Shown: positions 12,365-25,923, numbered from the stretch's first letter. The stretch is DNA of 64,000 nt from an uncultured Acidobacteriota bacterium (GCA_963805975.1 CAWDVR010000001.1:704001-768000); one strand, 5' to 3'. Made by a program: numbers and translations. Notes: generated by a model from the sequence alone, not told the origin.

Positions 12365-13587
12365 GCCTCCCGGCCGCCCTCCAGCGGCTCTTCTCTCCTG
12401 AGCTCGAGGCGCGGCTGGTGGCGCTGCGACGGGACCTCCATCGGCATCCAGAGCTTTCCTGGCAGGAGGAGCGGACCGCCGCCCGCCTGGAGGGGGAGCT
12501 CGCCGCGACCGGCGCCACCCAAGTGCGACGAGTGGCCGGCACCGGGCTCGTGGCCCGGATCGCCGGCCACGACCCGCAGGCACCGGTGGTGGCGATCCGC
12601 GGTGACATCGATGCCCTGCCCGTGGAGGAGGCGACCGGCCTGCCTTTCTCCTCCGAGCGCCCCGGCGTGATGCACGCCTGCGGGCACGACGTGCACGCCG
12701 CCTGGGCCGTGGGCGCCGCCGCGCTACTGGCCGGTTCACCGGCCGCGGGCGACGTCCTGGTCCTGCTGCAGCCGGCGGAGGAGGTGGCGGGCGGGGCGCT
12801 CGCCCTGCTCGAATCGGGCGTCCTCGAAGGCGTCGCCACCCTCTTCGGCGCGCACGTGGACCGTCGCTTCGAGGTCGGCCAGGTGGTGGCCCAGGCCGGT
12901 CCGCTGGCCGCGGCCAGCGACCTCTTCGAGATCTCGCTCCGCGGCCGTGGTGCTCACGGCGCCCGGCCGCACGAGGCGGTGGACCCGGTGGTGGGCGCAG
13001 CGGCCCTGATCCAGGCCCTGCAGACGATCATCTCGCGACGCCTCGCACCCGGCGAGCCCGGCGTGGTCACGGTCGGCTCGATCCATGGCGGGCAGGCGGC
13101 CAACGTGATCCCCGAATCCGTCACCCTGACGGGCACACTGCGCGCCACCCGTGCCGCCACGCGCGAGCTGCTGCGCGGGGAGATCTCGCGCATGGCGGGG
13201 GAGACGGCGCGGCTCTACGGGCTCGCGTCCACGGTGCGTTTCTTCGACTCGACGCCGGCGCTCGTCAACCCGGAGCGGGAAGCCGCCTGGGCGCGCGCGG
13301 CGGTGACCCGGGTGCTGGGCCCCGAGGCCCTCGTCCCCCTGGGTGCGCTCAACATGGCGGGGGAGGACTTCGCCTACTACCTCGAGCGCCTGCCGGGCTG
13401 TTTTCTGCGCGTCGGCGCCAGGGAAGCGGGTGGAGAGCCCATCCCCGCCCATTCGCCGCGCTTCTATGCCGCCGAGGAGAGCGTGCTGGTGGGCGCCGCG
13501 GTACTGGCGGAAGCGGCTCGAACGGCATCTCTGGCCTTGACAGCAGCGGCGGGGAAGGTCTACTCTCCAACGTCAAATGCTGGTTGA
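12361..13587 (+). CDS. M20D amidohydrolase (probable N-succinyl-L-amino acid desuccinylase)
   Basis: HRHPELS, RGDIDALP, MHACGHD, QPAEE, GAHGARP, GEDFAYY, HSPRF; GTG start overlaps the fabI stop. Confidence 0.9.
   Translation: MSLPAALQRLFSPELEARLVALRRDLHRHPELSWQEERTAARLEGELAATGATQVRRVAGTGLVARIAGHDPQAPVVAIRGDIDALPVEEATGLPFSSERPGVMHACGHDVHAAWAVGAAALLAGSPAAGDVLVLLQPAEEVAGGALALLESGVLEGVATLFGAHVDRRFEVGQVVAQAGPLAAASDLFEISLRGRGAHGARPHEAVDPVVGAAALIQALQTIISRRLAPGEPGVVTVGSIHGGQAANVIPESVTLTGTLRATRAATRELLRGEISRMAGETARLYGLASTVRFFDSTPALVNPEREAAWARAAVTRVLGPEALVPLGALNMAGEDFAYYLERLPGCFLRVGAREAGGEPIPAHSPRFYAAEESVLVGAAVLAEAARTASLALTAAAGKVYSPTSNAG
13537..13566 (+). promoter_or_regulatory. Sigma70-type promoter for TPR/secreted pair 1, embedded in the 3' end of the M20 gene
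   Basis: TTGACA (13537-13542), 18 nt, TACTCT (13561-13566), 10 nt before ATG 13577. Confidence 0.55.
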
Positions 13588-14551
13588 TCTGTCCTTCGCC
13601 TTCCGTCCACCCACGGCTCTCGCCTCGGAGGACCCCGCAGCCGTTCTTCCAGGAGACGAATTCGAGTCCTTGCAGGCGCGCGGGCAGGCGGCTTTCGACG
13701 CGGGACGCCTGCCCGAGTCGATCGAGCTCCTCGAGCGGGCGCTCGCCTGGGCCGAGGAGCACGGCGACCGCCGGCAGATCGATCTCGGCTTCTGCAACCT
13801 GACCAGCGCCCAGATCGCCCGCGACGAAAAGCGCCCCCTCGCGCCCGCGACCATGCAGCGGCTGCGCGCGGTGCTCCTCGCGAGCGAGGATCTGACCAAC
13901 TGCCGCCTCGCCGCCTACAACCTCGCTCGCGCCTTCGAGTTCATGAGCGACAGCAAGAAGGGCCTGTTCTACGCCCGCATCGCCCTCGATCGCGCGGAGC
14001 TCCTGGGCCGCGCCGACTGGATCGCGTCGAGCCACAACCAGATCGGCAACTTCCTGCTCGCCGACAGCTACTTCGACCAGGCCGCGGCCGAGTACGACGA
14101 GGCCCTGAGCCTCTATCCGCCGGAGGCCGCGCTGCGCCGCGCCCTGGTGGAGGGCAACCTCGGCTACTGCTCGATCGCGCGTGGCCGGGTGCAGCAGGGG
14201 CTCGAGCTGCTGGTTCGCAGCTTCCGGGTCCTGGCGCGGCGCGGCAGTATGACCGACCTTGCCGTGGCGCACGCCGACCTCTGCTACGCGCACCTCGAGC
14301 TCGGTCGCAGCCGCGACGCCGTCCGCCACGGCAACAAGGCGCTGGCGCTCGCCGAGCAGTGCGGCGCCAAGGACGTGGCGAAGAATTGCCTCTACCTGCT
14401 GGGCGCCGCCACCCAGCAGGGCGGCGACCGGCAGGGCGCCCACGACTGCTACTCGCAGCTCCAGGAGCGCTACTACCCGGGCTCGGCCTTCGTCGCCGAG
14501 TTCCTGCTCTCGGTCGACGTCCGCCGCATGATCAATCTGAGGGCCGCATGA
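13577..14551 (+). CDS. Cytoplasmic TPR protein (RRNPP/Rap-like), copy 1
   Basis: No signal peptide; helical repeats AAYNLARAF, SHNQIGNFL, EGNLGYC, KNCLYLLG; full-length paralog of 18047..18946. Confidence 0.8.
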   Translation: MLVDLSFAFRPPTALASEDPAAVLPGDEFESLQARGQAAFDAGRLPESIELLERALAWAEEHGDRRQIDLGFCNLTSAQIARDEKRPLAPATMQRLRAVLLASEDLTNCRLAAYNLARAFEFMSDSKKGLFYARIALDRAELLGRADWIASSHNQIGNFLLADSYFDQAAAEYDEALSLYPPEAALRRALVEGNLGYCSIARGRVQQGLELLVRSFRVLARRGSMTDLAVAHADLCYAHLELGRSRDAVRHGNKALALAEQCGAKDVAKNCLYLLGAATQQGGDRQGAHDCYSQLQERYYPGSAFVAEFLLSVDVRRMINLRAA

Positions 14552-15930
14552 GAACCCTGCTGCGGCCCCTCGTGCTGGTCCTGGCCCTGCTCGTTGCGGG
14601 TACCCCTGCTGCGGCCGAACCGCGCCAGACCGCCCTCGGTACGAACGGCGAGATCTATCGCCTGTTGACCGGGACCTATGGCCAGTTCTTCGGCGCCGGC
14701 CTCACTCCGGCCACCAACCCTGTGTTGGTGCTCGAGATCGTGCGACCGGGCGACCGCCACCCGGACCGCATGCTGGTGCCGGGCACCGAATCCGAAGACG
14801 TCGAGCGCGCCTCTTCGGTGAGCTTCGAGGAGCGCTCGGGGGCCGCCGTGGTCCTCTGGGCGAGCCAGAAGAACTACATTCGGTCGCGCATCAACCTGGC
14901 GACCTTCGACGGGGAGACCTGGTCGGCGCCTATCGAGCTCTCCGGCGACGTCTGGAGCCAGAAGTCCTCGCCGGCTCTCGCGGTGAGCAGCGACACCTAC
15001 CTGACCCGCACCGAGACCGGCACCGCCGCCCACGAGCGCAGGATCTACAACGTGGTGTGGTGGGAGCAGTCCGGTGCCGGGGATCGCGTCGTCTACTCGC
15101 CCGTGGTCTTCGTCGACGGTGCCTACATCGGCTGGAACCCGGTCTTCGTCCTCACCGACCTGACGGACGGCGACCCCTCGTTCGGGGCGCCGCTCCTGGT
15201 GCGCGACGAGCTGCTGCGCGTTCCCACCATCGCCAGCGGCGAGCGTCCGTCGGACTCCGTGGCCGCCTTCGTGCACCCGGCTACCAAGCAGTTGATCAGC
15301 GTCCAGATCAGCTCGCTCGCCGGGGAGATGACCATCCTCGCCGACCAGGTACGAGCCGATCTCACGAGCTTCGGCCAGGCGAACCCCACTGCGGACCTGG
15401 CGGCGCTGGGGGAGCGAGCCCGGCATCAGATCGTTGACTTCGGCGTCCGTCTCGGCATGCACCCCGGTCTGCTCAGCTTCGTGGGTGGGCGGGTCGCCTC
15501 CGGCCTAGCCCAGAACCCGGCGGAGACCTCTCTCGCCTCCCTGGGCGAGAAGGCGCGCCACCAGATCGTCGACTTCGGGGTACGGATGATGGCCCAGGGC
15601 CTCACCGGCGCCGAGGACCTCACGCCCGCCTGGCTGGCGGAGTTCGGCTCGGAACAGTACCCGGCGACCGACGACGGCCAGCCTCTCCACGCGTTGCGGG
15701 TACGCTTGATCGCCGCCCGTCCGGCGCCCCGCACCGAGTCTGGCACCACCTCAGTCTTCCTCTCCGAGAACGGCGAAGACGCCCTGATCGCCTGGCAGGC
15801 CGATGACATGGTCCGCTACTGCGAAGAGTCCAACGGCGAATGGAGCGAGATCCGGCAGCTCCAGCTCAACGCCGACCTCTCCTTGGCCCACGCCTTCGAG
15901 CTGCTGTCGGCGCGGGTTCGGAAGAACTGA
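14548..15930 (+). CDS. Secreted 460-aa hypothetical protein with duplicated peptide ARHQIVDFGVR, copy 1
   Basis: ATGA overlap with the TPR stop; Sec signal MRTLLRPLVLVLALLVAGTPAAA; paralog of 16658..18040. Confidence 0.85.
   Translation: MRTLLRPLVLVLALLVAGTPAAAEPRQTALGTNGEIYRLLTGTYGQFFGAGLTPATNPVLVLEIVRPGDRHPDRMLVPGTESEDVERASSVSFEERSGAAVVLWASQKNYIRSRINLATFDGETWSAPIELSGDVWSQKSSPALAVSSDTYLTRTETGTAAHERRIYNVVWWEQSGAGDRVVYSPVVFVDGAYIGWNPVFVLTDLTDGDPSFGAPLLVRDELLRVPTIASGERPSDSVAAFVHPATKQLISVQISSLAGEMTILADQVRADLTSFGQANPTADLAALGERARHQIVDFGVRLGMHPGLLSFVGGRVASGLAQNPAETSLASLGEKARHQIVDFGVRMMAQGLTGAEDLTPAWLAEFGSEQYPATDDGQPLHALRVRLIAARPAPRTESGTTSVFLSENGEDALIAWQADDMVRYCEESNGEWSEIRQLQLNADLSLAHAFELLSARVRKN
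15397..15585 (+). repeat. In-frame duplicated peptide LAxLGE(R/K)ARHQIVDFGVR, period 135 nt
   Basis: Copies start at 15397 and 15532; 11-aa core identical, 7 of 11 codons differ synonymously. Confidence 0.95.
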
Positions 15931-16029: not shown

Positions 16030-16610
16030 ATGCCCGAGCACTCGCAGACAGAGTTGAGGGTCTTCAGAGAGTTCGCTCGGTGGGCTCCACTCCAGATCGA
16101 CCAAGACTCCATCCAGAAGAGACAGCCTCCAGAGCCCGATATTCTCTGTAGATCCTCCGAAGGTCAGGAGTTCGCATTCGAGCTGGTGGAGGTCGTTGAT
16201 CCCGATCTAGCTACCGCTGATTCCCGTCAGGTGAGACTTCAAGTTGCGTTGAGCGGGGGCCGGTAGGACGCTGCGTTTAGGCGACAGTACGGCGACGCCG
16301 TTGTCGGAATCACCTTTCAGCGCGAGCTCTCAATGCAGAAACTTTATACTTCAACGTAGCTGCTGTTGAAGCCTTTGCGGATCCCACTCTGAAGACGATC
16401 CGAAGCAAGCTAACTCGTACGTACTCGGTGACGGGGAGTCTCGCCCTGCTGGCCTACTTCAGTGGCCAGCCCATGCATGCCGGAACCGAATGGGGGCTCG
16501 GGCTTGAGGAGCAGATCCGCGATCTTCTTCGCCCCTCGACATTCGATGCGGTCTGGCTGTTCGAGATGAGTTCTGGACGTCTTGTCGAAATCCAGCACTA
16601 TGCTGGGTAA
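16030..16610 (+). pseudogene. Decayed gene with a PD-(D/E)xK-like motif, between the two convergent pairs
   Basis: Fragments 16030..16266 (PEPDILC...AFELVE) and 16428..16610 separated by stops and a frameshift; visibly more AT-rich than the flanks. Confidence 0.5.
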
Positions 16611-16657: not shown

Positions 16658-18040
16658 CTACCGCTCACGCACCCGCTGCCGCAGGATCTGCTCTGCTCTC
16701 GCAGCGTCGATGGGGCCTTCGAGGGCGATGCGGCGGGCGGCGGTCCAGCCGGCGTCGCGCGACTCGCGGTAGCGCAGGGCTCCGGTCTCGCTCCAGCTCA
16801 CCACGGCACGCCGTCCGTCCTCTGCCAGAAAGATCCAGATCGGGCCGGCGCCGACGCCGGGGGCGCGGCGCTCGTTGACCAGTCGCAGCCAAACGTGGTG
16901 CGGCCTTCCCTCGACCCCACCCACGGCCGGGGCGCGGATCTCGAGGACGCGGCTCACCGTGGCGGCGTCGCCTCCGGCCAGGCCGCCCTCGCCGAACACC
17001 CGCGCGCCGATCTCGATCATATGGCCGCGTGCGTGCTCGGCCAGCGAGACGACGCTGCCCGTTTCCAGCCCGGTGTCGCGGATGTCGGCTGCTACGTCGT
17101 CGGCCAGGAAGGTCAGGAGGCCCGGGTGCAGGCGGTGACCGATCTCGATCATGTGGCCGCGCGCGTGCTCGGCGAGGCTCACCAGCCCGTCGGCCGAGAA
17201 CAAGTCCTCGTCCGCCTCGATGCGCGCCGCCGTGCCATCGGCCAGCTCGCCCAGCTCGGCCGGCAGTACCCTTGCGTCGAACACCAGAAAGCGCTCGGTC
17301 GCCTTGTTGACGAAGCCCAGGACGACGCTGTTCTCGTCCCGGCCGGACTCCATCCTCGGCGAGCGGAACAGATCGGCCGGCAGCATCATGTGCTGCTGGG
17401 GCACCGCGCTGGCATCGAGGTCGCTCAGGTTGTAGACCTCGTTACGGCCGAGATAGGCGCCGTCGATCAGGAAGATCGGCGTGTAGAAGACCTCTTCGGA
17501 AGAGGCCGCCTTCTCCCACCAGGCCACGTGCAGCACGGTGCGGCTGTGGAGTACGGACGGCTGGCCCGCGGCACCCACCACCTCGAAGTCGTCGCGGGTG
17601 ATCGAGACCTGGGGCGGACCCTTGAGGGGAGCGATGTCGCCGGAGACCTCGAAGACCTGCGACCAGACGCCGCCCTTGAGCCAGGCCAGATTCACCCGCG
17701 AGTGCTGGGGCTGCGGCTTGCTCTCCCAGAACACGAAGAGGCTGTTCGAGGCGTCCTCGAAGACCAGGGCGGGCTGGCCCTCGATCGCCGCGCCGTCGGT
17801 CTCCGGCACCTTCAGGCGGCGTAGCGGCTCGCCGGGGGGCTGCACGTCGATGGCGATCAGGGGGTGGTTGGAGCTCGCCGCGGCGCAATCGGAGAAGAGA
17901 TCGCGGCAGCGGCCGCTCTTGGCCACGTAGATCTCACCGCCCAGGCCGAGCGCGGCGTCGCGGGGCACCTCGGCTACCAGGGCCGGAGAGCCGAGAGCCG
18001 CCAGGGCGGCGAGGGAGAGCAGGATGCGTGCGTGCGACAT
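16658..18040 (-). CDS. Secreted 460-aa hypothetical protein with duplicated peptide VSLAEHARGHMIEIG, copy 2
   Basis: Sec signal MSHARILLSLAALAALGSPALVA; shares ALG.GEIY, VP.T, SR.NLA, E.SGD, V.WWE, Y.P...DGAY.G.N.V and HPGLL with copy 1. Confidence 0.85.
   Translation of the reverse strand: MSHARILLSLAALAALGSPALVAEVPRDAALGLGGEIYVAKSGRCRDLFSDCAAASSNHPLIAIDVQPPGEPLRRLKVPETDGAAIEGQPALVFEDASNSLFVFWESKPQPQHSRVNLAWLKGGVWSQVFEVSGDIAPLKGPPQVSITRDDFEVVGAAGQPSVLHSRTVLHVAWWEKAASSEEVFYTPIFLIDGAYLGRNEVYNLSDLDASAVPQQHMMLPADLFRSPRMESGRDENSVVLGFVNKATERFLVFDARVLPAELGELADGTAARIEADEDLFSADGLVSLAEHARGHMIEIGHRLHPGLLTFLADDVAADIRDTGLETGSVVSLAEHARGHMIEIGARVFGEGGLAGGDAATVSRVLEIRAPAVGGVEGRPHHVWLRLVNERRAPGVGAGPIWIFLAEDGRRAVVSWSETGALRYRESRDAGWTAARRIALEGPIDAARAEQILRQRVRER
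17006..17182 (-). repeat. In-frame duplicated peptide VSLAEHARGHMIEIG, period 132 nt
   Basis: Copies at 17138-17182 and 17006-17050; 15 aa identical with synonymous differences, including Ser AGC versus TCG. Confidence 0.95.
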
Positions 18041-18046
18041 GGTGTC

Positions 18047-18946
18047 TCAGGCCTTGATGTTGATCAGTCGCTTGACGTTCAGGAGGAGCAGGAGATCGGC
18101 CACGCCCTCGGCGCCGGGGTAGAACTCCTCCTGCAGGCGGGCGAACTGAGCGCGCGCCGCGAGCGGGTCGCCGGCGAGCTTGAAAGCCTCGCCCAGGAGG
18201 AAGAGGGAGTTCTTGCGCATCTCGGGGTTGTCGATCTCCTCGGACATGCGCAGGGCGGCGATCGCGTGCCGGATGGCGCTGCGATAGCGGTTGATCTCGA
18301 GATAGGCGAAGCAGAGGCTGACCTCGACCACCGGCCTCCAGGCCACGGCGCCCGCCCGGCGGATCAGCCGTAGGGCATCGAAATGGGCCTCGAAGCCCTG
18401 CCGGTAGCGGCCCTGCACCACGTGGCAGTAGCCGAGGTTGTCGAGCGCCAGGGCGCGGCGCAAGGGGTTCTCGTCGGGCAGGGCTGCGATCGCCTGCTCG
18501 AACTCCTTGCGCGCGTCGTCGAACTTGCTGCTCGCCAGGAGCAGGTTCCCGAGCAGGTTGTGAGTCGAGGACAGCCAGTCCGCTCGCTCGGCCTCGCGGG
18601 CGTAGCGGTGGGCGATGCGGGTGTAGAAGAGCGCCTTGGCGCCGTCCTTGGCCACCTCGTAGGCGCGGCCCAGCGTATAGGCGGCGAGGAAGCTGCTCTC
18701 GGGGTCGGAGTTCTTGACCAGGATGCGCCGCAGGTCGGCCTTGACGCTCTCGGTCTCGCCGGTCTCCACCAGATAGGCCGCACGGTTGCACAGCGTGCGG
18801 TCGACCTGCCAGTTCTCGCCGTGCTCGCCGAGCCAGGTGAGGGCGCCATCGAGGATCGCGAGCGCCTGCTGGAGCTGTCCGGCGAGCGCCGCGCTCCACG
18901 CCTCCTGCTTGTAATGCTCGTAGGCTTCGCTGGCGCCGGCGGTCAT
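18047..18946 (-). CDS. Cytoplasmic TPR protein (RRNPP/Rap-like), copy 2
   Basis: AAYTLGRAY, LFYTRIA, THNLLGNLL, DNLGYC, KNSLFLLG, LQEEFYPG; no signal peptide; ends 6 nt before the secreted gene. Confidence 0.8.
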   Translation of the reverse strand: MTAGASEAYEHYKQEAWSAALAGQLQQALAILDGALTWLGEHGENWQVDRTLCNRAAYLVETGETESVKADLRRILVKNSDPESSFLAAYTLGRAYEVAKDGAKALFYTRIAHRYAREAERADWLSSTHNLLGNLLLASSKFDDARKEFEQAIAALPDENPLRRALALDNLGYCHVVQGRYRQGFEAHFDALRLIRRAGAVAWRPVVEVSLCFAYLEINRYRSAIRHAIAALRMSEEIDNPEMRKNSLFLLGEAFKLAGDPLAARAQFARLQEEFYPGAEGVADLLLLLNVKRLINIKA

Positions 18947-19356
18947 GGGCGAGCTCGAACCTCCGGCATCCGGTGAACCGGTGGAGCGGGCTCGGCGGGC
19001 CGCGGCCCGACGGCAACGGGGGCCGAGGGCCGGCGGCGGGTGATCAGGTGCTGGATCTCGTCCTGGTCCTCGGCCGGCAGGGCGTTGAACTGCTGCAGCA
19101 TCAGCACTTCGCGCGGGCTGACCGCGCCGCCGCGGTCCTCTTCGAAGAACTCCGCGACACTGACCTTGAACTCGGCCAGCATGCGGAACAGGGTGTCGAG
19201 GCTGACGCGGTATTCGCCGCGCTCGATGCGGGAGAGGTCGGACTGCTGGATGCCGATGCGGGCGGCGAGGTCGTTCTGCGTGAGCTTACGCTCCTTGCGC
19301 AGCCGACGAATCTTCCGCCCGACCAGCTCCACCTGCTGAGTTCGCTGTGCCACCAT
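18943..19356 (-). CDS. XRE-family HTH transcriptional regulator
   Basis: GRKIRRLRKERKLTQNDLAARIGIQQSDLSRIERG; stop overlaps the TPR copy 2 start (ATGA). Confidence 0.9.
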   Translation of the reverse strand: MVAQRTQQVELVGRKIRRLRKERKLTQNDLAARIGIQQSDLSRIERGEYRVSLDTLFRMLAEFKVSVAEFFEEDRGGAVSPREVLMLQQFNALPAEDQDEIQHLITRRRPSAPVAVGPRPAEPAPPVHRMPEVRARP

Positions 19357-19404: not shown

Positions 19405-19434
19405 GATGCTACAGTAGCATCCAGAACGCGTCAA
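19405..19434 (-). promoter_or_regulatory. Sigma70 promoter of the XRE-TPR-secreted operon with an overlapping palindrome (putative operator)
   Basis: Minus strand TTGACG (19434-19429), 17 nt, TAGCAT (19411-19406); perfect inverted repeat GATGCTAC-A-GTAGCATC at 19405-19421. Confidence 0.7.
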
Positions 19435-19469
19435 GGCCCAAAACCTCTGTGCTACCATTTCGACGCCCG

Positions 19470-20804
19470 ATGAGCGCGCCGGTCTCGCCCAAGATCTTCG
19501 TTCTCGACACCTCGGTCATCCTCTACGACTTCCAGAGCATCCACAGCTTCGAGGAGCACGACGTGGCGGTGCCGATCACCGTCATCGAGGAGCTCGACCA
19601 GTTCAAGAAGGGCGGCAACGTCATCAACCTGCACGCCCGCGAGTTCGTGCGCGAGCTCGACCGCCAGTCGGCCCACCACGATCTGCGCGGCTGGGTGCCG
19701 ATCAACGGCGCGACACGGGGGCGGTTTCGGGTCATCACCGACGAGGGCTCCCGGGTCGACGCCGTGGCGGCCTTCGGCAACCGCAAGAACGACCACCGCA
19801 TCCTGAACGCCGCCCTGGCGCTCGCCGAGCAGGAGAGCGATCGCCGGGTGATCCTGGTGAGCAAGGACATCAACCTGCGGGTGAAGGCCCGGGCCTTAGG
19901 GCTAGAGGCCGAGGACTACGAGACGGTCAAGATCGAGGATCTCGAGCGCCTCTATACCGGCAAGAGCGAGGTGGAGGTGGCGGACGGCGGGCTGATCGAC
20001 CGCCTCTACTCGGAGGGCGCCGTGCCGGCCGAGGAGCTCGGCCTGCCCGAGGCGCCGCCCGCCCACCACTACTTCATCCTGCGGAGCGCGACGCGCTCCG
20101 CCCTCGCCTGCTTCAACCCGCGGACCCAGGCGCTCGAGCGGGTGGTGAAGACCCCGGCCTACGGCGTCCAGCCGCGCAACGCCGAGCAGACCTTCGCGCT
20201 GCACGCGGTGCTCAACCCGGCGGTGCCGCTGGTGAGCCTCTCCGGGCCGGCGGGCACAGGCAAGACGCTCCTCGCCCTGGCCGGCGCCCTGGAGCAGCGG
20301 CGCTCGTTCCGCCAGATCCTCCTGGCACGGCCCATCGTGCCGCTGTCGAACAAGGACATCGGCTACCTGCCGGGAGACATCAACTCGAAGATCAGCCCCT
20401 ACATGCAACCGGTGTGGGACAGCCTGGGCGTGATCAAGGACCAGTTCGGCGAGCGGCAGAAGGAGGCCAAGCGGATCGACGAGATGAGCGAGCTCGGCAA
20501 GCTCCAGGTGGTGCCGCTCGCCTACATCCGCGGCCGGAGCTTCTCGAACATCATCTTCGTGGTCGACGAGGCGCAGAACCTCACGCCGCACGAGGTGAAG
20601 ACCATCATCACCCGCGCCGGCGAAGGCACCAAGATCGTCTTCACCGGCGACATTTTTCAGATCGACACCCCGTATCTCGACGCCCACAGCAACGGCCTTT
20701 CGTACCTCATCGACCGCATCCGCGACAGCCCGCTCTACGCGCACGTGAACCTGGACAAGGGCGAGCGCTCGGAGCTCGCCAACCTGGCGAGCCGGCTGCT
20801 GTAA
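19470..20804 (+). CDS. phoH: PIN + PhoH ATPase (PhoH2/YlaK type)
   Basis: FVLDTSV, VIEELD, NDHRIL, SKDINLRVKA (PIN); GPAGTGKT, GYLPG, YIRGRSF, DEAQNLT, GDIFQID. Confidence 0.92.
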   Translation: MSAPVSPKIFVLDTSVILYDFQSIHSFEEHDVAVPITVIEELDQFKKGGNVINLHAREFVRELDRQSAHHDLRGWVPINGATRGRFRVITDEGSRVDAVAAFGNRKNDHRILNAALALAEQESDRRVILVSKDINLRVKARALGLEAEDYETVKIEDLERLYTGKSEVEVADGGLIDRLYSEGAVPAEELGLPEAPPAHHYFILRSATRSALACFNPRTQALERVVKTPAYGVQPRNAEQTFALHAVLNPAVPLVSLSGPAGTGKTLLALAGALEQRRSFRQILLARPIVPLSNKDIGYLPGDINSKISPYMQPVWDSLGVIKDQFGERQKEAKRIDEMSELGKLQVVPLAYIRGRSFSNIIFVVDEAQNLTPHEVKTIITRAGEGTKIVFTGDIFQIDTPYLDAHSNGLSYLIDRIRDSPLYAHVNLDKGERSELANLASRLL

Positions 20805-20892: not shown

Positions 20893-22698
20893 GTGAGATC
20901 TCCAGGGCCAGGCGAGGCGTCGCCGACTCTCTCGACGAGGTCCGACTTCGAGGGCATCCTCGAAGGGCTCTGGAACGATCCCCGGCGTTTCCACCGCCCG
21001 GCCCACGAGGTGCTCGCCGACCTGCTGAGCTTCGGCGGGCGGCTGCCGCTCGGCGACGGCGCCGACGCCCTGGCGGAGCTCGACCGCCGGCTCTGGGAGG
21101 CGCTGGCCTCGCGGCCCGAGATCGTCCTCTCTCCCGAGCCGCCGAGTCGTGGCACGGTCCTGGAAGCGTTCTCGAACGAGCTCGGCCGGGTGCATCTGCG
21201 GCCGGCGGGGCTGCCGCGGCCGGACTACGGGCCCCGGGCCGGGCCCCACACGCACGGCTGGATCGCGGTGCCGCCGGAGCTCTACCGCGAGGCCCGCGCG
21301 GCAGCCGACGCGGCTCTCGCCGAGGAGGCGGCGCTGCGGACGCGCTGCGACGCGCTCTTCGCCAGCGACCCCGAGCTCGCCGACCCCGACCGGGTGCTCG
21401 ACGCGGTCGACGACGCCGTGCGCCACGTCGAGGCGGTGATGCTCTACCTCGACGACGAGCTGCTGGCCCTGATCGAGCGTCACAAGACGCTGATCGACAG
21501 CAACGGCCGGCCCGGCCTGTGCTCGCGCCTGCGTGGCCGCAACCCCTGCTCGTGGACCTCCGGCGAGCGGCTGGCGGTGGTGGCGCTCCGCGCCCTCTTC
21601 CTCTCTGGCCGCTCGATCCGCTTCGAGGAGTTCAACGGCAAGGAGCTCACTGCGCGGCGGCTGCTGGCCAAGCTCTCGGAGCTGGCGCGGGCCTACGAGC
21701 CGTTCGGCCTCGAGCTGCCGGCCGCGGACGCCGGTCCGCTCGCGCTGGCGGCGAGCATCGGCCGGGCGGCGCAGCGCGCGATCGGCCAACCCCGGCTGCG
21801 GTACCGCTACGTCAACGGCCTCACCTTCTTCAAGGCCGAGCGCTGGACCCGGGTGGCGGACACCCCCGACCTGCCGCTGCCTGCCCGGGTCCTGGCGCTC
21901 CACGAGGCCTGGCTGGGCCGTCCGCCCGAGGGCACACCGGAGGAGGTCTTCGACCGCTTGGCCGAGGCCGCGGTCTATGGCCGCGTGGAGCTGCCCGACG
22001 AGGCGTTCAGCGGCCGGGCCGCGACCACGCCGGTCGAGCTGCTGATGGAGGAGATGGTGGTGGCGGTGCTGTTCGCGGCCGGCGCCGACTACTCGATGTC
22101 GAGCTCACTGCGCGACCTGCGTTGGCTGACGGTCGCGGACCGCGCCGCCCGCCTCGAGGGCATCGTCGATCTCGAGCCGCGGCCGCATTTTTTCTGTGCG
22201 GTGGCCTCGCGGCCTGGGCTGGCGGCCGAGCTCGGCGAGCGCCTGGCGCCGCACGTCTACCACGCCGTGCAGGCGCGGATGGAGTTCAACCGCTGGCATT
22301 TCATCCCCGGCAACTTCCCCGAGAGCGAGGTGCCGCGAACCCGGCACTATTACTATCCGCCGGTGATGCCCGACCTGGCCGAGTGGTCCGACCAACGCCA
22401 CAGCGGCCACAAGCGCGGCGGGGTGCGCTACTCGATCCGCACTCCCGGCCCGGACATGGGGGAGCCGCCGCTGACCCTCGCGGGCCAGGCCTATCGCGGC
22501 TTCTACGACCTGCGCGCCGTGCGTATGGAGGGGTCGCCGTTCAATGTCGCCGAGATGCTCGCCGTCCGCCGGCTGCGGGTGTGGCTGGGGTTGCTCTGGC
22601 GGCGGATCTTCGAGCGCTCGGAGGCCGAGCCGGGTTCGGTGGTGATCCGCGGCTTCGTCACCGGGAGGGGCTACGAGCCGGCGGGCGAGGAGGCATGA
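20893..22698 (+). CDS. Hypothetical protein, first gene of a four-gene operon
   Basis: 601-aa ORF with GC3-biased codons; enzyme-like C-terminal motifs WHFIPGN, PPVMPDLAEWSDQRHSGH, VRYSIR, GFYDLR; family not recognised. Confidence 0.7.
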   Translation: MRSPGPGEASPTLSTRSDFEGILEGLWNDPRRFHRPAHEVLADLLSFGGRLPLGDGADALAELDRRLWEALASRPEIVLSPEPPSRGTVLEAFSNELGRVHLRPAGLPRPDYGPRAGPHTHGWIAVPPELYREARAAADAALAEEAALRTRCDALFASDPELADPDRVLDAVDDAVRHVEAVMLYLDDELLALIERHKTLIDSNGRPGLCSRLRGRNPCSWTSGERLAVVALRALFLSGRSIRFEEFNGKELTARRLLAKLSELARAYEPFGLELPAADAGPLALAASIGRAAQRAIGQPRLRYRYVNGLTFFKAERWTRVADTPDLPLPARVLALHEAWLGRPPEGTPEEVFDRLAEAAVYGRVELPDEAFSGRAATTPVELLMEEMVVAVLFAAGADYSMSSSLRDLRWLTVADRAARLEGIVDLEPRPHFFCAVASRPGLAAELGERLAPHVYHAVQARMEFNRWHFIPGNFPESEVPRTRHYYYPPVMPDLAEWSDQRHSGHKRGGVRYSIRTPGPDMGEPPLTLAGQAYRGFYDLRAVRMEGSPFNVAEMLAVRRLRVWLGLLWRRIFERSEAEPGSVVIRGFVTGRGYEPAGEEA

Positions 22699-23706
22699 GA
22701 GGAGGCCGGCGACGCCTGGCGGTCCTGCTGCTGGTCGACCCGGAGGTGGTCGCCGCCGAAGACCCGCAGTTCTCGCGGCCCACGGGCAGGGCGAGCCGGC
22801 TGGAGGCGCACGTGGCCGCGGGGCTGCGCCGGTCCGGGCACGCGGTCGAGGTGTTGCCCTGCGGGCCGGGGGGAGAACGGCTGCTCGAGAGCCTGATCGC
22901 GGCCGGGTGCCGGACCGACCTGGTCTTCAACCTGACCGAGCACTTCGCCGGCGACCGCCGGGGAGACGCGTTGGTGGCGGCGGCGCTCGAGCTCCTGGGC
23001 CTGCCCTACACCGGGAGCGGGCCGGAGGCGCTCCTGCTGTGCCGCGACAAGGCCGAGTCCAAGCATCGCCTGCGGCGGGCCGGCCTGGCGGTGCCGGAGT
23101 TCGCCGTGCTCGAGCCCGGCGGGCACGATCTCTCGCCGCCTGCCCTACCCGGTGCTGGTCAAGCCGCGCTTCGGGGACGCCTCGGAGCTGATCGCCGCCG
23201 CCTCCCTCGCGGCGAGCCCGGCGGCGGCGGCGCGGCGGGCGCTCCAGGTGCAGCGGGTCACCGGCCAGGCGGCGATCTGCGAGGCGTACGTCCCCGGCCG
23301 TGAGCTCAAGGTGGCTGTCTTGGGAGGCGCCAGGCCGCTCGTGCTGCCGCCCCGCGAGGTGCACTTCGGCAGGCGCGGCGGGCCGGGGTTCCTCACCGCG
23401 CGCGTCAAGAACGACGCCGCCTACCGCCGGCGCTGGAACATCCGCTACCGGCGGGCGAGGCTCGCCCCGCGGACCCTCGCCGCGGTCGAGGAGGCGAGCC
23501 TCGCGGCCTACCGGCTGCTCGGCCTGCGCGACTACGGCAAGCTCGACCTGCGTCTGACGGCGGAGGGCGAGGCCGTCTTCATCGAAGCCAACCCCAACCC
23601 CGACCTTTCGCCGACCGGCTTCGGGGCGATCGCCTCCTGGGCCGGGATCGGCTACCCTGAGCTGCTCGACCGTATCGCCCGCTCGGCCTTGGAGAGAGCC
23701 CCCTGA
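22695..23706 (+). CDS. D-Ala-D-Ala-ligase-like ATP-grasp ligase (one frameshift near 23135)
   Basis: DLVFNLTE, LELLGLPYTGS, CRDK in the first frame; YPVLVKP, CEAYVPGRE, DYGKLDLR, IEANPNPDL in the second. Confidence 0.8.
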
Positions 23707-23732
23707 TCGATCTCGCCCGCGACTACCCGACG

Positions 23733-24701
23733 TTGGCGCGCCTGACCCGCGCGGCGGAGGACGGCTCCCTCGCCGACCTCGAGCTCGCGCCAGACGGCCG
23801 CTGGCAGACCCGCGCCGTCACCCTCGCCGGGCTGACGCGCGAGGTGGCGGCGCACCTCGCGGCCACGCTCGGGAGGCACGAGCCGGAGGATCTCCCGGTC
23901 TTCGTCGTCGCCTGGGGCAAGTGCCGCGTCGGCTCCACCGCCCTCACCAACCTGTTCGGCATCGCCGGCGTGCCGGCCTTCTACCAGCCGGTCAAGACCA
24001 CGGCGCGCCACCTGCTCGTCGGGTCCCAGCCGCCGCCCTGGGAGCCGCCGTCGGCGAGCGAGCATCCGCTGATCATGGCCAAGGAGATGGCCGGCCCCTA
24101 CCTGGCCGTCGAGACGGTGTTCAACCCGCTCGCGATGCTGGTCGACGCTGGCTACCCGGCCGCCAAGCTCCACCTCCTGGTGCTGGAGCGCGAGCCCCTG
24201 GTCTCGCTCTCCTCGTGGCTCCACAAGTGGGCCGACCGGCTGCCGCGCCGCACGCTGGTCGAGCACTTTGCGCTCTCTTCGCTCGCCGCGCCGCGCATGG
24301 AGGCCTGGGCCGGGGAGTATGGCGTGCCGGTCACGCACTACCTCTACGAGGCGAGCCGCCGGCCGGAGCAGACCATCGCCGCCCTGCTGGCGCGCCTGGG
24401 CATCGGCGAGAAGTTCCGTCCCGAGGTGGTCAACGACTGGGACGAGCGCGGCGAGCTCGGCTCGGAGCGCTCGCTGATCTTCTTCCCGCGCGAGCCCGAG
24501 GTCTACGTGGTGCCCGGTCTGCACTCCTCCTTCACCCGCTATGCCTTCCAGCCGCGGGCGGCCTCGAACCTCATGGCGGAGGAGCGGCGCCTGGTCGAGG
24601 AGTTGGGCCTCGAGGAGCTCTACGCCCGCTCGGCGCGCGCCATGTGCGAAGAGCTGGGCTTTGACGAGGAGCTGGCGCGGGCCGTGCTCGCCCCGGGCTG
24701 A
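23733..24701 (+). CDS. Sulfotransferase-like P-loop protein (start may be CTG 23703)
   Basis: WGKCRVGSTAL resembles the 5'-PSB loop; LEREPLVSLSSW resembles the 3'-PB R-x-P-x6-S motif. Confidence 0.65.
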   Translation: MARLTRAAEDGSLADLELAPDGRWQTRAVTLAGLTREVAAHLAATLGRHEPEDLPVFVVAWGKCRVGSTALTNLFGIAGVPAFYQPVKTTARHLLVGSQPPPWEPPSASEHPLIMAKEMAGPYLAVETVFNPLAMLVDAGYPAAKLHLLVLEREPLVSLSSWLHKWADRLPRRTLVEHFALSSLAAPRMEAWAGEYGVPVTHYLYEASRRPEQTIAALLARLGIGEKFRPEVVNDWDERGELGSERSLIFFPREPEVYVVPGLHSSFTRYAFQPRAASNLMAEERRLVEELGLEELYARSARAMCEELGFDEELARAVLAPG

Positions 24702-24711
24702 AGGCCGGCCG

Positions 24712-25923
24712 ATGGCAGAGACCCTCGGAGAGAGGCTCACCATCCGCGATCCGCTCGGGCCGCCGGCGGCCGAGCTGCGGCGCGAGCGCGAGCGGCTGTG
24801 CGCCTTCCTGCGCGAGCGCGAGGACGAGGTGTTCACGGCACCCGACTTGGGGCTAAGGCAAGAGCTGCGCCTGCTCCTGGGCTGGGACGACGACACCTTC
24901 ACGGCCTTCGTCGCCTCGCCGCTCCTCACCCACAGCTCGCCGCACACCGGCCTCAACCTCTTCGCGCCCATGATGTCTTTCGCCTGGGTGCAGCGCTCGC
25001 TGCAGGAGATCTCCACACCGTATCTAGCCTCCGGACGAGCGGTGCACCTGCGCACGCTGGTGATGCACAACAACCTGGGGGACCTGCGCTACCGCCCCTA
25101 TGCCTGGTGGCGGCGGGAGCGCGGCGGCCGCCTCGCCAAGACCGTCTTCTTCAGCCGCGGCCACGCGCAGCGCCGCAAGGTGCTGCTGGCGCTGCCGGCG
25201 CCGGAAGTCGACCCCGCGGGCTGCTGCGAGTCGGACCGCGCGGCCGTGGCTCTAGCCCGCCACGGCCGCGGCTACGCCTACTTCGCGCTGCTCTACCGGC
25301 GCCACATCGAGCGCCAGGCGGGCTTCCACCTGCCTGGCGCCAGTCTCGACGTGCCCCTCAACCTGCTCGCCGGGTTCACCTTCCGGCGGCATGACCCGGC
25401 GGCCTGGGCCGCCGCCTCGGAGGCTGTCGCGGGCCGCAGCCTGCGGGCCGTCTCGCCCGAGGGAGAGCTGACCAGGCTCTCGGCGCAAGACCTCTCGGCC
25501 TGGGCCGGGGGCTGCCCGGAACTCGAGCGGCTGCGCGTGGTGATGCCCAACTTCGCGGCCTTCGCGCAGATCTACCGGCTGGGAGTGTCGGTCCTCGTCG
25601 GCGCCGAGAAGATGGCCCGCTACGTGGCACCGATGAACGCCGAGATCGCCGCCCTGCTGGCGGCGGTGGGGGAGAGCGCCCCGGCGCCGCGACTGATCCC
25701 GATCACGCGCTTCCCGGTGAGCGAGGCGGCGCCGCTCGACGAGCCGACTCGCGCCGAGCTCGGCAGGGCGGGCCTGACCCACTCGCTGCCGCTCGCCGTG
25801 GCCGACTTCGGAGCGGGCCTCTCCGAACGTTTCGCGGTGCTCCTGGACCGCTCGTACCGCGAGTTCTTCCCGGTGGAGGAGCTGGCGACCGAGCCAGCTT
25901 GCACTTCGTCGTCGGCCTGCTAG
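24712..25923 (+). CDS. Hypothetical protein (403 aa), last gene of the operon
   Basis: ATG 10 nt after the previous stop; motifs HSSPHTG, MHNNLGD, GAEKMARY; family not recognised. Confidence 0.65.
   Translation: MAETLGERLTIRDPLGPPAAELRRERERLCAFLREREDEVFTAPDLGLRQELRLLLGWDDDTFTAFVASPLLTHSSPHTGLNLFAPMMSFAWVQRSLQEISTPYLASGRAVHLRTLVMHNNLGDLRYRPYAWWRRERGGRLAKTVFFSRGHAQRRKVLLALPAPEVDPAGCCESDRAAVALARHGRGYAYFALLYRRHIERQAGFHLPGASLDVPLNLLAGFTFRRHDPAAWAAASEAVAGRSLRAVSPEGELTRLSAQDLSAWAGGCPELERLRVVMPNFAAFAQIYRLGVSVLVGAEKMARYVAPMNAEIAALLAAVGESAPAPRLIPITRFPVSEAAPLDEPTRAELGRAGLTHSLPLAVADFGAGLSERFAVLLDRSYREFFPVEELATEPACTSSSAC

Follow-up and report, generated by a model that had tools for sequence, protein, structure and literature searches.

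The Rco-Rap-Phr module of pLS20 from Bacillus subtilis combines an XRE repressor, a TPR (tetratricopeptide repeat) anti-repressor and an exported peptide, the last being a pentapeptide derived from Phr, a pre-pro-protein 44 residues long (PMC3814332). The signature of RRNPP systems consists of a Sec-secreted propeptide of 10-100 residues encoded next to a receptor of 250-500 residues with TPRs (PMC10075063), and up to six identical internal peptide copies are found in known propeptides of the Rap, NprR, PlcR and AimR systems (PMC9765709). In Rap3T, the backbone of the peptide is anchored by an Asn, D338 lying at the N-end of the ligand and Q182 at its C-end (PMC11343458). We describe here a locus from an uncultured Acidobacteriota bacterium (GCA_963805975.1, CAWDVR010000001.1:704001-768000; this whole stretch of 64,000 nucleotides is hereafter called the window) in which the gene of an XRE-family helix-turn-helix (HTH) regulator is followed by those of a TPR protein (TPR receptor 1) and of a 460-residue protein, carrier 1, with a predicted export signal and identical internal nonapeptides. 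A paralogous pair (TPR receptor 2 and carrier 2) lies in the same window (Table 1). Comparative sequence data strongly support recognition of the nonapeptide by the adjacent TPR protein.

The three genes are co-oriented in the order HTH, TPR, carrier, the stop codon of the HTH gene overlapping the start of TPR 1 and carrier 1 beginning 6 nt after TPR 1; the start of carrier 2 overlaps the stop of TPR 2 by 4 nt. As in Rco-Rap-Phr, there is a separate XRE protein, a TPR protein without an HTH of its own and a secreted peptide source, the latter predicted here. However, the source differs from Phr in being a large protein, modelled as a folded propeller, with one to four internal nonapeptides, and the 299-residue TPR protein differs from Rap in that no Rap-type N-terminal bundle was evident in its model. 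Unlike pLS20, this is a single three-gene operon, chromosomal, class-wide and carried by a diderm host, in which anti-repression is suggested by analogy. Receptor sizes (299 and 324 residues), the presence of TPRs and the adjacency of receptor and source agree with the RRNPP signature, but the 460 residues of the carrier lie far outside the range of 10-100 (21-50 for validated propeptides). A Sec-type signal on the peptide source (here a putative one, by eye) is common to RRNPP(A) systems and the carrier, and multi-copy peptides are common to the latter and the Rap, NprR, PlcR and AimR propeptides. Likewise, conserved Asn residues, apparent antiparallel binding and allelic diversity recall Rap3T-Phr3T, Rap105-Phr105, NprR-NprX, PlcR-PapR and AimR-AimP, and the peptide direction deduced below is that seen in Rap3T (PMC11343458). 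RRNPP receptors other than Rap have a fused HTH, whereas it is separate here, and RRNPP systems have been described from Bacillota, whereas the present locus belongs to Acidobacteriota. No RRNPP family model reached its cut-off on the proteins of the window. The TPR profile matched RapF (E 6e-6) and Rap3T (E 2e-5), ranked below LGN, CTPR and AfsR, and sequence similarity to RapF, Rap3T and PDB entry 5dbk was no better than to generic TPRs. Because the carrier is too large a source for the signature and the ancestry of the receptor is left undecided by profile and fold scores, the system was not filed as RRNPP. A short regulatory motif within a much larger protein, with proposed proteolytic release, is also represented by RGSGR of HetN in Anabaena, although its target is HetR and not a TPR protein (PMC4133259). 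No description of an HTH-TPR-carrier system was found in the literature searched, the coverage of which excluded most subscription papers. The motif of HetN is, we assume, single and without an allelic code, in a fold unrelated to that of the carrier. As far as these comparisons go, the carrier architecture appears undescribed, and the receptor-peptide pairing has unusually direct comparative support.

On the minus strand, positions 17006-17182 read in translation as VSLAEHARGHMIEIG-HRLHPGLLTFLADDVAADIRDTGLETGSV-VSLAEHARGHMIEIG. A previous examination of the DNA without database searches (the sequence-only reading) had noted these 15 residues twice in carrier 1, 44 residues apart, with synonymous changes including AGC/TCG between the copies. 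This was borne out, since 8 nt in six codons, all of them synonymous, separate the two copies. The consensus that it had drawn between the paralogs, A-R-x-[QH]-[IM]-[VI]-[DE]-[FI]-G, also held, with ARGHMIEIG twice in carrier 1 and ARHQIVDFG twice in carrier 2. The degenerate units placed about 22 residues from the conserved copies, LADQVRADLTSFG and LADDVAADIRDTG, are both present, and an arrangement of four slots, each filled or degenerate, explains them. The 15-residue repeat exceeds chance expectation: in this genome, exact internal repeats of at least 15 residues were found in 6 of 1652 genes of 300-700 residues (crude gene calling). The conserved unit is narrower than the repeat and comprises nine residues, numbered -2 to +7.

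Among 203 carrier homologs, an exact repeat of at least seven residues was found in 179 within the insert region and in none elsewhere in the protein. Two to four copies of a dominant core were present in 149 carriers, with 123 variants and a terminal Gly in 148; overall, one to four identical, allele-specific copies are held per carrier. Within proteins, the excess identity between alignment slots (42 of the 203 rows, those ungapped in both slots) was 0.48-0.71 at -2 and at +1 to +6 and 0.25-0.29 at -3/-4, and it fell to 0.01 one residue past the Gly. At the degenerate codons of identical residues, synonymous differences between copies amounted to 208 of 568 (37%, compared with 45% expected at saturation) in the 51 of 60 carriers with a repeat, and six Ser switches between AGY and TCN were counted. 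Synonymous sites are thus near saturation, which suggests that selection keeps the copies alike and rules out recent gene conversion as the main cause, although the shortfall from 45% and the four of 51 carriers without any synonymous difference point to some copying. Genomes with two full carriers held different peptides in all 24 cases (one assignment unclear), as old paralogs would in any event.

Further signs of a discrete unit are an exact tandem 9-mer in one carrier (L051), copies past the fourth helix of the insert in several others, and the single copies of insert-less relatives from other orders. These have one homologous motif at the same place, in a loop and mostly with Arg at its start (e.g. 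DRAHFPDIG, ARGHxPIG, RRxIPVVG, RRHxPVFG), indicating that the motif is independent of the helices. In the insert-less carriers L079, L281 and L285, ARGHTP[IV]G begins like the phage Rap3T pheromones RRGHTA and SRGHTS, probably by coincidence. Cleavage directly after the Arg, giving a heptapeptide, was considered and dropped, as position -2 is shared between copies (0.83 versus 0.36) and coupled to TPR position 210. In ten carriers with Gly for Arg, the TPR proteins keep D210 in 0/10, N134 in 3/10 and E97 in 4/10 cases, a loss which was not significant in independent pairs. An assignment to ribosomally synthesised and post-translationally modified peptides was rejected, no modifying enzymes recurring among the neighbours.

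The relation between peptide and receptor was analysed on 144 of 186 TPR-carrier pairs (effective number 108), of which 124 had at least two identical cores; in the other 20 the peptide was assigned manually, from a single copy or from nearly identical ones. Truncated, insert-less or unclear pairs were left out. Mutual information with average product correction (MI-APC) was calculated between 299 TPR columns and 317 carrier columns, i.e. nine from the peptide and 308 controls from outside the insert. Eight of the nine top-ranking pairs, out of 94,783, involve nonapeptide positions. Position +6 was coupled with TPR positions 32, 54, 20 and 13, +5 with 86 and 127, +2 with 131, 135 and 61, +1 with 166, 163 and 206, -1 with 134 and -2 with 210. 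This order is antiparallel, the C-end of the peptide facing TPR1 and its N-end TPR6. At z>4, the positions that we take to line the TPR groove accounted for 16 of 21 peptide pairs and for 18 of 91 control pairs (Fisher p 1.8e-6). The coupled groove residues of TPR receptor 1 include F86, S127, L131, L135, E61, L32, L166 and S210. The coupling shows charge or size complementarity. Arg86 occurs with Asp+5 in 66/72 pairs and with Glu+5 in 3/42, Arg131 with Asn or Glu+2 in 18/19, Asp210 with Ala-2 in 73/80, Gly127 with Ile+5 in 5/6 and Trp127 with Gly+5 in 4/6. Both pairs of the window obey these rules, F86/L131/E61 being associated with E+5 and H+2 in pair 1, and R86/Q131/F135/D210 with D+5 and Q+2 in pair 2.

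Phylogenetically independent pairs were then drawn from a tree built without groove and peptide columns. The associations D+5/R86 (11.3:0 of 16, p 0.001) and V/T/S+6/Y32 (7.6:0, p 0.008) each ranked first of 397 TPR traits, and N/E/D+2/R131 (8:0, p 0.008) and I+6/F32 (7.9:0.8, p 0.02) were also retained, so that 4 of 13 traits passed the sign test. Pairs fetched later (16, from one genus) agreed throughout: F+6/G20 in 7/7, V+6/V20 in 9/9, I+5/G127 in 4/4 and L+5/C86 in 5/5, the F/V switch at +6 arising twice on the TPR tree of that genus. Insert-less carriers with DRAHFPDIG, hence D+5, were accompanied by R86 in 5/5 cases. In genus g12 (L254-L272), peptide changes numbered 2/3/5 on the TPR tree and 5/7/7 on the carriers' own tree, both weakly supported, a hint that receptor plus peptide recombines against the carrier scaffold. 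The sequence-only reading had proposed that the repeat reflects allele-like specificity and not fold alone, and had named as a test whether motif variants track TPR clades. Among close relatives the variants do follow the TPR tree, which linkage alone predicts as well. The tie of this specificity to the TPR protein is supported by the coupling of nonapeptide and groove, by the four independent traits and by the new pairs. That the alleles act as pherotypes between cells is what we infer from this pattern.

An AlphaFold2 model of carrier 1 (72 sequences; predicted local distance difference test, pLDDT, 92.9) consisted of a beta-rich body and helices at residues 261-276, 286-300, 306-323 and 330-350. 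The helical insert in an otherwise beta-rich protein, as anticipated by the sequence-only reading, was thus recovered in the model, as four helices and not as the suggested hairpin, with the motif at the ends of helices 2 and 4. Neither carrier matched a Pfam or NCBIfam family, and no significant PDB sequence match was obtained. Fold comparison of the carrier returned many unrelated beta-propellers (Z up to 14.7; root-mean-square deviation 4.4, 250 aligned residues); Foldseek matches to lectins had low TM scores (0.2-0.3), and ESM Atlas gave generic leads (best 0.92, a hypothetical protein; BNR_4 0.90). The TPR model was an all-helical solenoid (pLDDT 94.5), in line with a TPR_12 match (E 2.9e-13, above cut-off), with fold Z scores of 25.2 for APPBP2, 23.9 for the Rap105-peptide complex, 23.5 for APC/C, 21.3 for NprR-NprX, 19.2 for Rap_pLS20 (6t3h), 18.3 for PlcR and 17.6 for AimR. 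As a model, it fits a peptide receptor, though not specifically. Its Asn ladder (N54, N130, N134, N170, N246 and N296) is conserved in 115, 141, 130, 144, 117 and 140 of 144 TPR proteins, respectively. Seven residue steps over five to six repeats, with all helix faces read, suggest an extended rather than a helical ligand. Very probably, the peptide would be bound extended and antiparallel, the Asn ladder holding its backbone, with its Gly end at TPR1-2 and Ala-Arg at TPR6. A complex prediction of the TPR protein with carrier residues 258-352 scored 0.00 with an uncertain partner fold and was used neither way. Two other conserved elements were observed. The C-terminal tail of the TPR protein, D[VI]Rx[LM][IV]NL[KR]A (residues 284-299 of P0003; 18047-18100), is strongly conserved; it loosely resembles the peptide and could close off the groove or occupy it itself. 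A basic amphipathic C-terminal helix, D..RA..IL..R.R (residues 445-460 of P0001; 16658-16710), is kept even in distant insert-less carriers.

The closest named relatives are Thermoanaerobaculia, the word-based searches being shallow, with 16 proteins and one locus. The carrier was present in 38 of 41 related genomes. Of the genomes scanned for the TPR gene, 234 of 300 in the order had it, as had 140 of 151 in the class and 38 of 251 in the phylum; the system mostly occurs in one or two copies per genome. With E values up to 0.001, the carrier profile matched 1040 clusters (50% identity). Lengths were 423-504 residues among the top 150 carrier relatives, about 300-390 in insert-less ones, and the aligned TPR span was 295-308 residues in 60 homologs. 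A TPR gene lay directly upstream of 60/60 full-length carriers and, reciprocally, a carrier homolog directly downstream at 186 of 197 unique TPR loci. Five of the remaining 11 loci were at a locus edge, five were distant and without a profile match, and one was an orphan (L042:6519-7445), lying divergent from a complete HTH-TPR-carrier operon; it is possibly an eavesdropping receptor. An HTH gene was found upstream of TPR at 158 of 192 loci with room for it. An unpublished genome (G063) contributed one row to these locus tallies and to the operator set, and no claim depends solely on it. In one family of the order (f4; G010, G021, G030, G039 and others) HTH, TPR and carrier were not found, all three together: TPR in 0/45 genomes, HTH in 0/2 searched, and for the carrier a single weak, stop-interrupted match (a remnant in G039) among four genomes. 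The strict operator pattern was absent from the one f4 genome searched for it. In other classes of the phylum (L083, L086, L090; also L087-L089, L095, L097 and L099), TPR genes are followed by those of secreted proteins of 300-330 residues, some with a G-x-x-D-x-P-[IV] motif repeated twice and C-terminal cysteines. At such other-class loci a sigma-70 gene recurs in 13 and a rhomboid protease gene in 11, the latter of which could be a processing candidate there.

The HTH recognition region was nearly invariant. Palindromic sites were found upstream of HTH genes in 61 of 71 regions, the seed pattern occurring in 32/71 compared with 0.16 in mononucleotide shuffles. In the window, the palindrome GATGCTACAGTAGCATC overlies the -10 element of the putative HTH promoter, suggesting autorepression. 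Over 21 genomes, the strict operator pattern gave 46 sites versus 5 for the reversed control. Among the 25 highest-scoring sites in this genome, 22 were intergenic, 16 at most 250 nt upstream of a gene and eight upstream of a signal-peptide-like gene; with 60 permuted matrices, the means for these classes were 10.7, 5.5 and 2.0 and the maxima 22, 13 and 5 (crude gene caller). Nine of 20 candidate targets had Pfam matches, including an S8 protease, an amidohydrolase, a sugar transferase, SLT and a PKD protein. A second XRE HTH gene (56% identical; G000:C5:533017-533391, L065:5015-5467) stands alone between those of an M23 peptidase and a Wzm-like permease, with a palindrome of its own (C5:533428). 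Since relatives keep HTH, TPR and carrier 2 at that place, it seems that TPR 2 and carrier 2 have left their HTH behind.

N-termini with the succession of basic, hydrophobic and Ala-containing segments were recognised by eye in both carriers and in most of 60 homologs. As an export signal is seen by eye in the carrier and none in the TPR protein, the two would meet either before export or once the carrier has been exported and cut and the peptide re-imported. In favour of the latter route are the diversity of alleles, the abrupt boundary at the Gly, the copies that stand alone and the hint that alleles reassort. Export by Sec, release by proteolysis of an approximately 9-residue peptide ending at the Gly, and return to the cytoplasm through an Opp/Dpp-type importer form a reasonably probable sequence of events, in which additional copies would raise the yield of peptide per carrier. 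Two SBP_bac_5 (Opp/Dpp-type) binding proteins are encoded in the genome. Once back, the peptide would be bound by the neighbouring TPR protein, and this in turn would switch the XRE regulator encoded with it. By analogy with the action of Rap on Rco in pLS20, a role of the TPR protein as anti-repressor or co-regulator is likely, with the operon itself, the export of surface polysaccharide and secreted enzymes under the control of the circuit. For the circuit as a whole, a Rco-Rap-Phr-like one in which the TPR protein reads a peptide excised from an exported propeller, the balance is slightly in favour.

Several observations weigh against this view. Nine of the 13 independent-pair tests were not significant (eight pointed in the same direction, Arg-1/N246 in none), and the columns and traits tested had been picked after the MI-APC scan. 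The fold matches of the TPR protein are generic, APPBP2, APC/C and LGN scoring as high as peptide receptors. In the model the motif is helical within a well-folded carrier, so that release would need unfolding and two cuts. No conserved processing protease or peptide importer adjoins the operon among the conserved neighbours surveyed, and a signal acting between diderm cells would have to cross the outer membrane. On the regulatory side, TPR-carrier pairs are often without an adjacent HTH gene (one was found elsewhere in 3/3 such genomes checked), and among 159 pairs no coupling between HTH and TPR was outstanding (top z 6.1). No HTH-TPR fusion was found in 197 loci or among longer proteins, itself weak evidence of absence. 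The raw genome-wide operator count was not enriched (18 versus 17.7 +/- 15 for permuted matrices).

A first alternative is that the cytoplasmic TPR protein binds the nonapeptides in the unfolded carrier before export, without any release, the copies giving avidity. A precedent exists in type III secretion, where TPR chaperones bind linear motifs. The TPR protein, once bound, would then either inform the XRE regulator of export or envelope stress or escort the carrier. This explains all coupling data with neither protease nor importer, neither of which is conserved nearby, and suits a single-copy system that is nearly universal in the class and has operator targets that are largely secreted proteins. 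However, nothing in it calls for 123 variants among 149 carriers, for several alleles in a single genus, or for a peptide that follows the TPR tree more closely than the carrier tree, and it has no need of a near-invariant terminal Gly with a sharp loss of constraint one residue later. We regard this pre-export reading as unlikely, though as the most serious competitor of the excised-peptide circuit. Less likely still is a cell-autonomous signal of envelope damage, in which stress proteolysis of an exported sentinel would let the peptide re-enter the same cell, with the same receptor logic. No outer membrane needs to be crossed in this case, the peptide would be stored in a stable fold (in the model), and neighbours and targets are related to the envelope (M23 peptidase, redoxin, ECF sigma, Wzm-like permease, sugar transferase, SLT). 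RGSGR of HetN again offers a precedent of a motif within a larger protein, its release being called speculation (PMC4133259). Such a private signal, however, gives little reason for allelic diversity or apparent reassortment. Finally, a structural repeat of helices packing alike, or copied DNA, with the TPR link due to genetic linkage, is highly improbable despite the equivalent helix ends occupied by the motif in the model and the limited copying noted above, for synonymous divergence is near saturation with six Ser switches, the motif persists without the helical insert, the approximately 308 equally linked non-insert columns couple far more weakly and without focus on the groove, and independent pairs support the coupling.

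Table 1. Features of the HTH-TPR-carrier locus and of its paralogous pair, in window coordinates
Feature	Position	Strand	Remarks
TPR receptor 2 (P0004), 324 aa, start possibly later	13577..14551	+	R86, Q131, F135, D210 equivalents
Carrier 2 (P0002), 460 aa	14548..15930	+	Paralog, 32% identical to carrier 1
Carrier 2 nonapeptide copy 1, ARHQIVDFG	15418..15444	+	From sequence
Carrier 2 nonapeptide copy 2, ARHQIVDFG	15553..15579	+	From sequence; 45 aa from copy 1
Carrier 1 (P0001), 460 aa	16658..18040	-	Sec-type signal peptide by eye; predicted beta-propeller-like body
Predicted four-helix insert, aa 261-350	16991..17260	-	Four motif slots about 22 aa apart
15-aa repeat VSLAEHARGHMIEIG, copy 2	17006..17050	-	aa 331-345
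Carrier 1 nonapeptide copy 2, ARGHMIEIG	17006..17032	-	aa 337-345
Degenerate slot 3, LADDVAADIRDTG	17069..17107	-	Full copy there in some homologs
15-aa repeat VSLAEHARGHMIEIG, copy 1	17138..17182	-	aa 287-301
Carrier 1 nonapeptide copy 1, ARGHMIEIG	17138..17164	-	aa 293-301
TPR receptor 1 (P0003), 299 aa	18047..18946	-	Seven predicted helix pairs; no signal peptide by eye
XRE-family HTH regulator, 137 aa from likely start	18943..19356	-	HTH_3 E 2.8e-15
Palindromic operator-like site GATGCTACAGTAGCATC	19405..19421	.	Family consensus TATGYYR-N3-YRRCATA
Sigma-70-like promoter TTGACG-17-TAGCAT	19406..19434	-	Spacer and -10 overlap palindrome

The surroundings of the operon were also surveyed. Conserved neighbours in this bacterial order are genes for an M23 peptidase, a GHMP kinase, a redoxin, an extracytoplasmic function (ECF) sigma/anti-sigma pair, a Wzm-like permease and FG-GAP proteins. 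Between the converging carrier genes, a short insert at 16030-16610 (plus strand) contains two open reading frame (ORF) pieces, 16030-16266 and 16281-16610, with a PD..FELVE motif that we take to be nuclease-like; the first piece had no Pfam match. A same-genus genome has approximately 340 nt between its two carriers. Divergent from the HTH gene, and having the operator region in common with it, is a PIN-PhoH gene (19449-20804, plus strand). It is followed at 20893-25923 (plus strand) by a run of ORFs, three of them (601, 322 and 460 residues) without a Pfam family above cut-off, with a presumably ATP-grasp-like piece at 23152-23706; the run looks like an uncharacterised biosynthetic cluster. 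In a soil RNA run, contigs of relatives covered parts of all five genes, which cannot show transcription or co-transcription.

Cytoplasmic peptide-receptor signalling is described, in the literature reviewed here, from Gram-positive bacteria and their mobile elements. The present system, with its apparent folded peptide source of 460 residues, was present in 140 of the 151 genomes sampled from a class that is largely uncultured, and RRNPP_detector, which keeps only propeptides of 10-100 residues, would miss such a layout. Natural variants of the peptide number more than 120, and for many of them the paired receptor is available; together they would amount to a readable code of TPR-peptide recognition. 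Two peptides and two receptors in one genome, together with named swap residues and a named operator, allow specific and cheap tests. A core chromosomal circuit, with a kin-specific barcode in an exported propeller, a TPR code nearly position by position, as in Asp+5/Arg86 and Phe+6/Gly20, an XRE regulon comprising secreted enzymes and surface polysaccharide, and peptide-plus-receptor alleles that reassort against the carrier scaffold, is for now a tentative proposal, falling somewhat short of an even chance. If true, a kin-specific pheromone, freed by proteolysis and read by a cytoplasmic TPR protein, would have no small propeptide as its source but would be stored as a barcode, in up to four copies, within a folded, exported beta-propeller.

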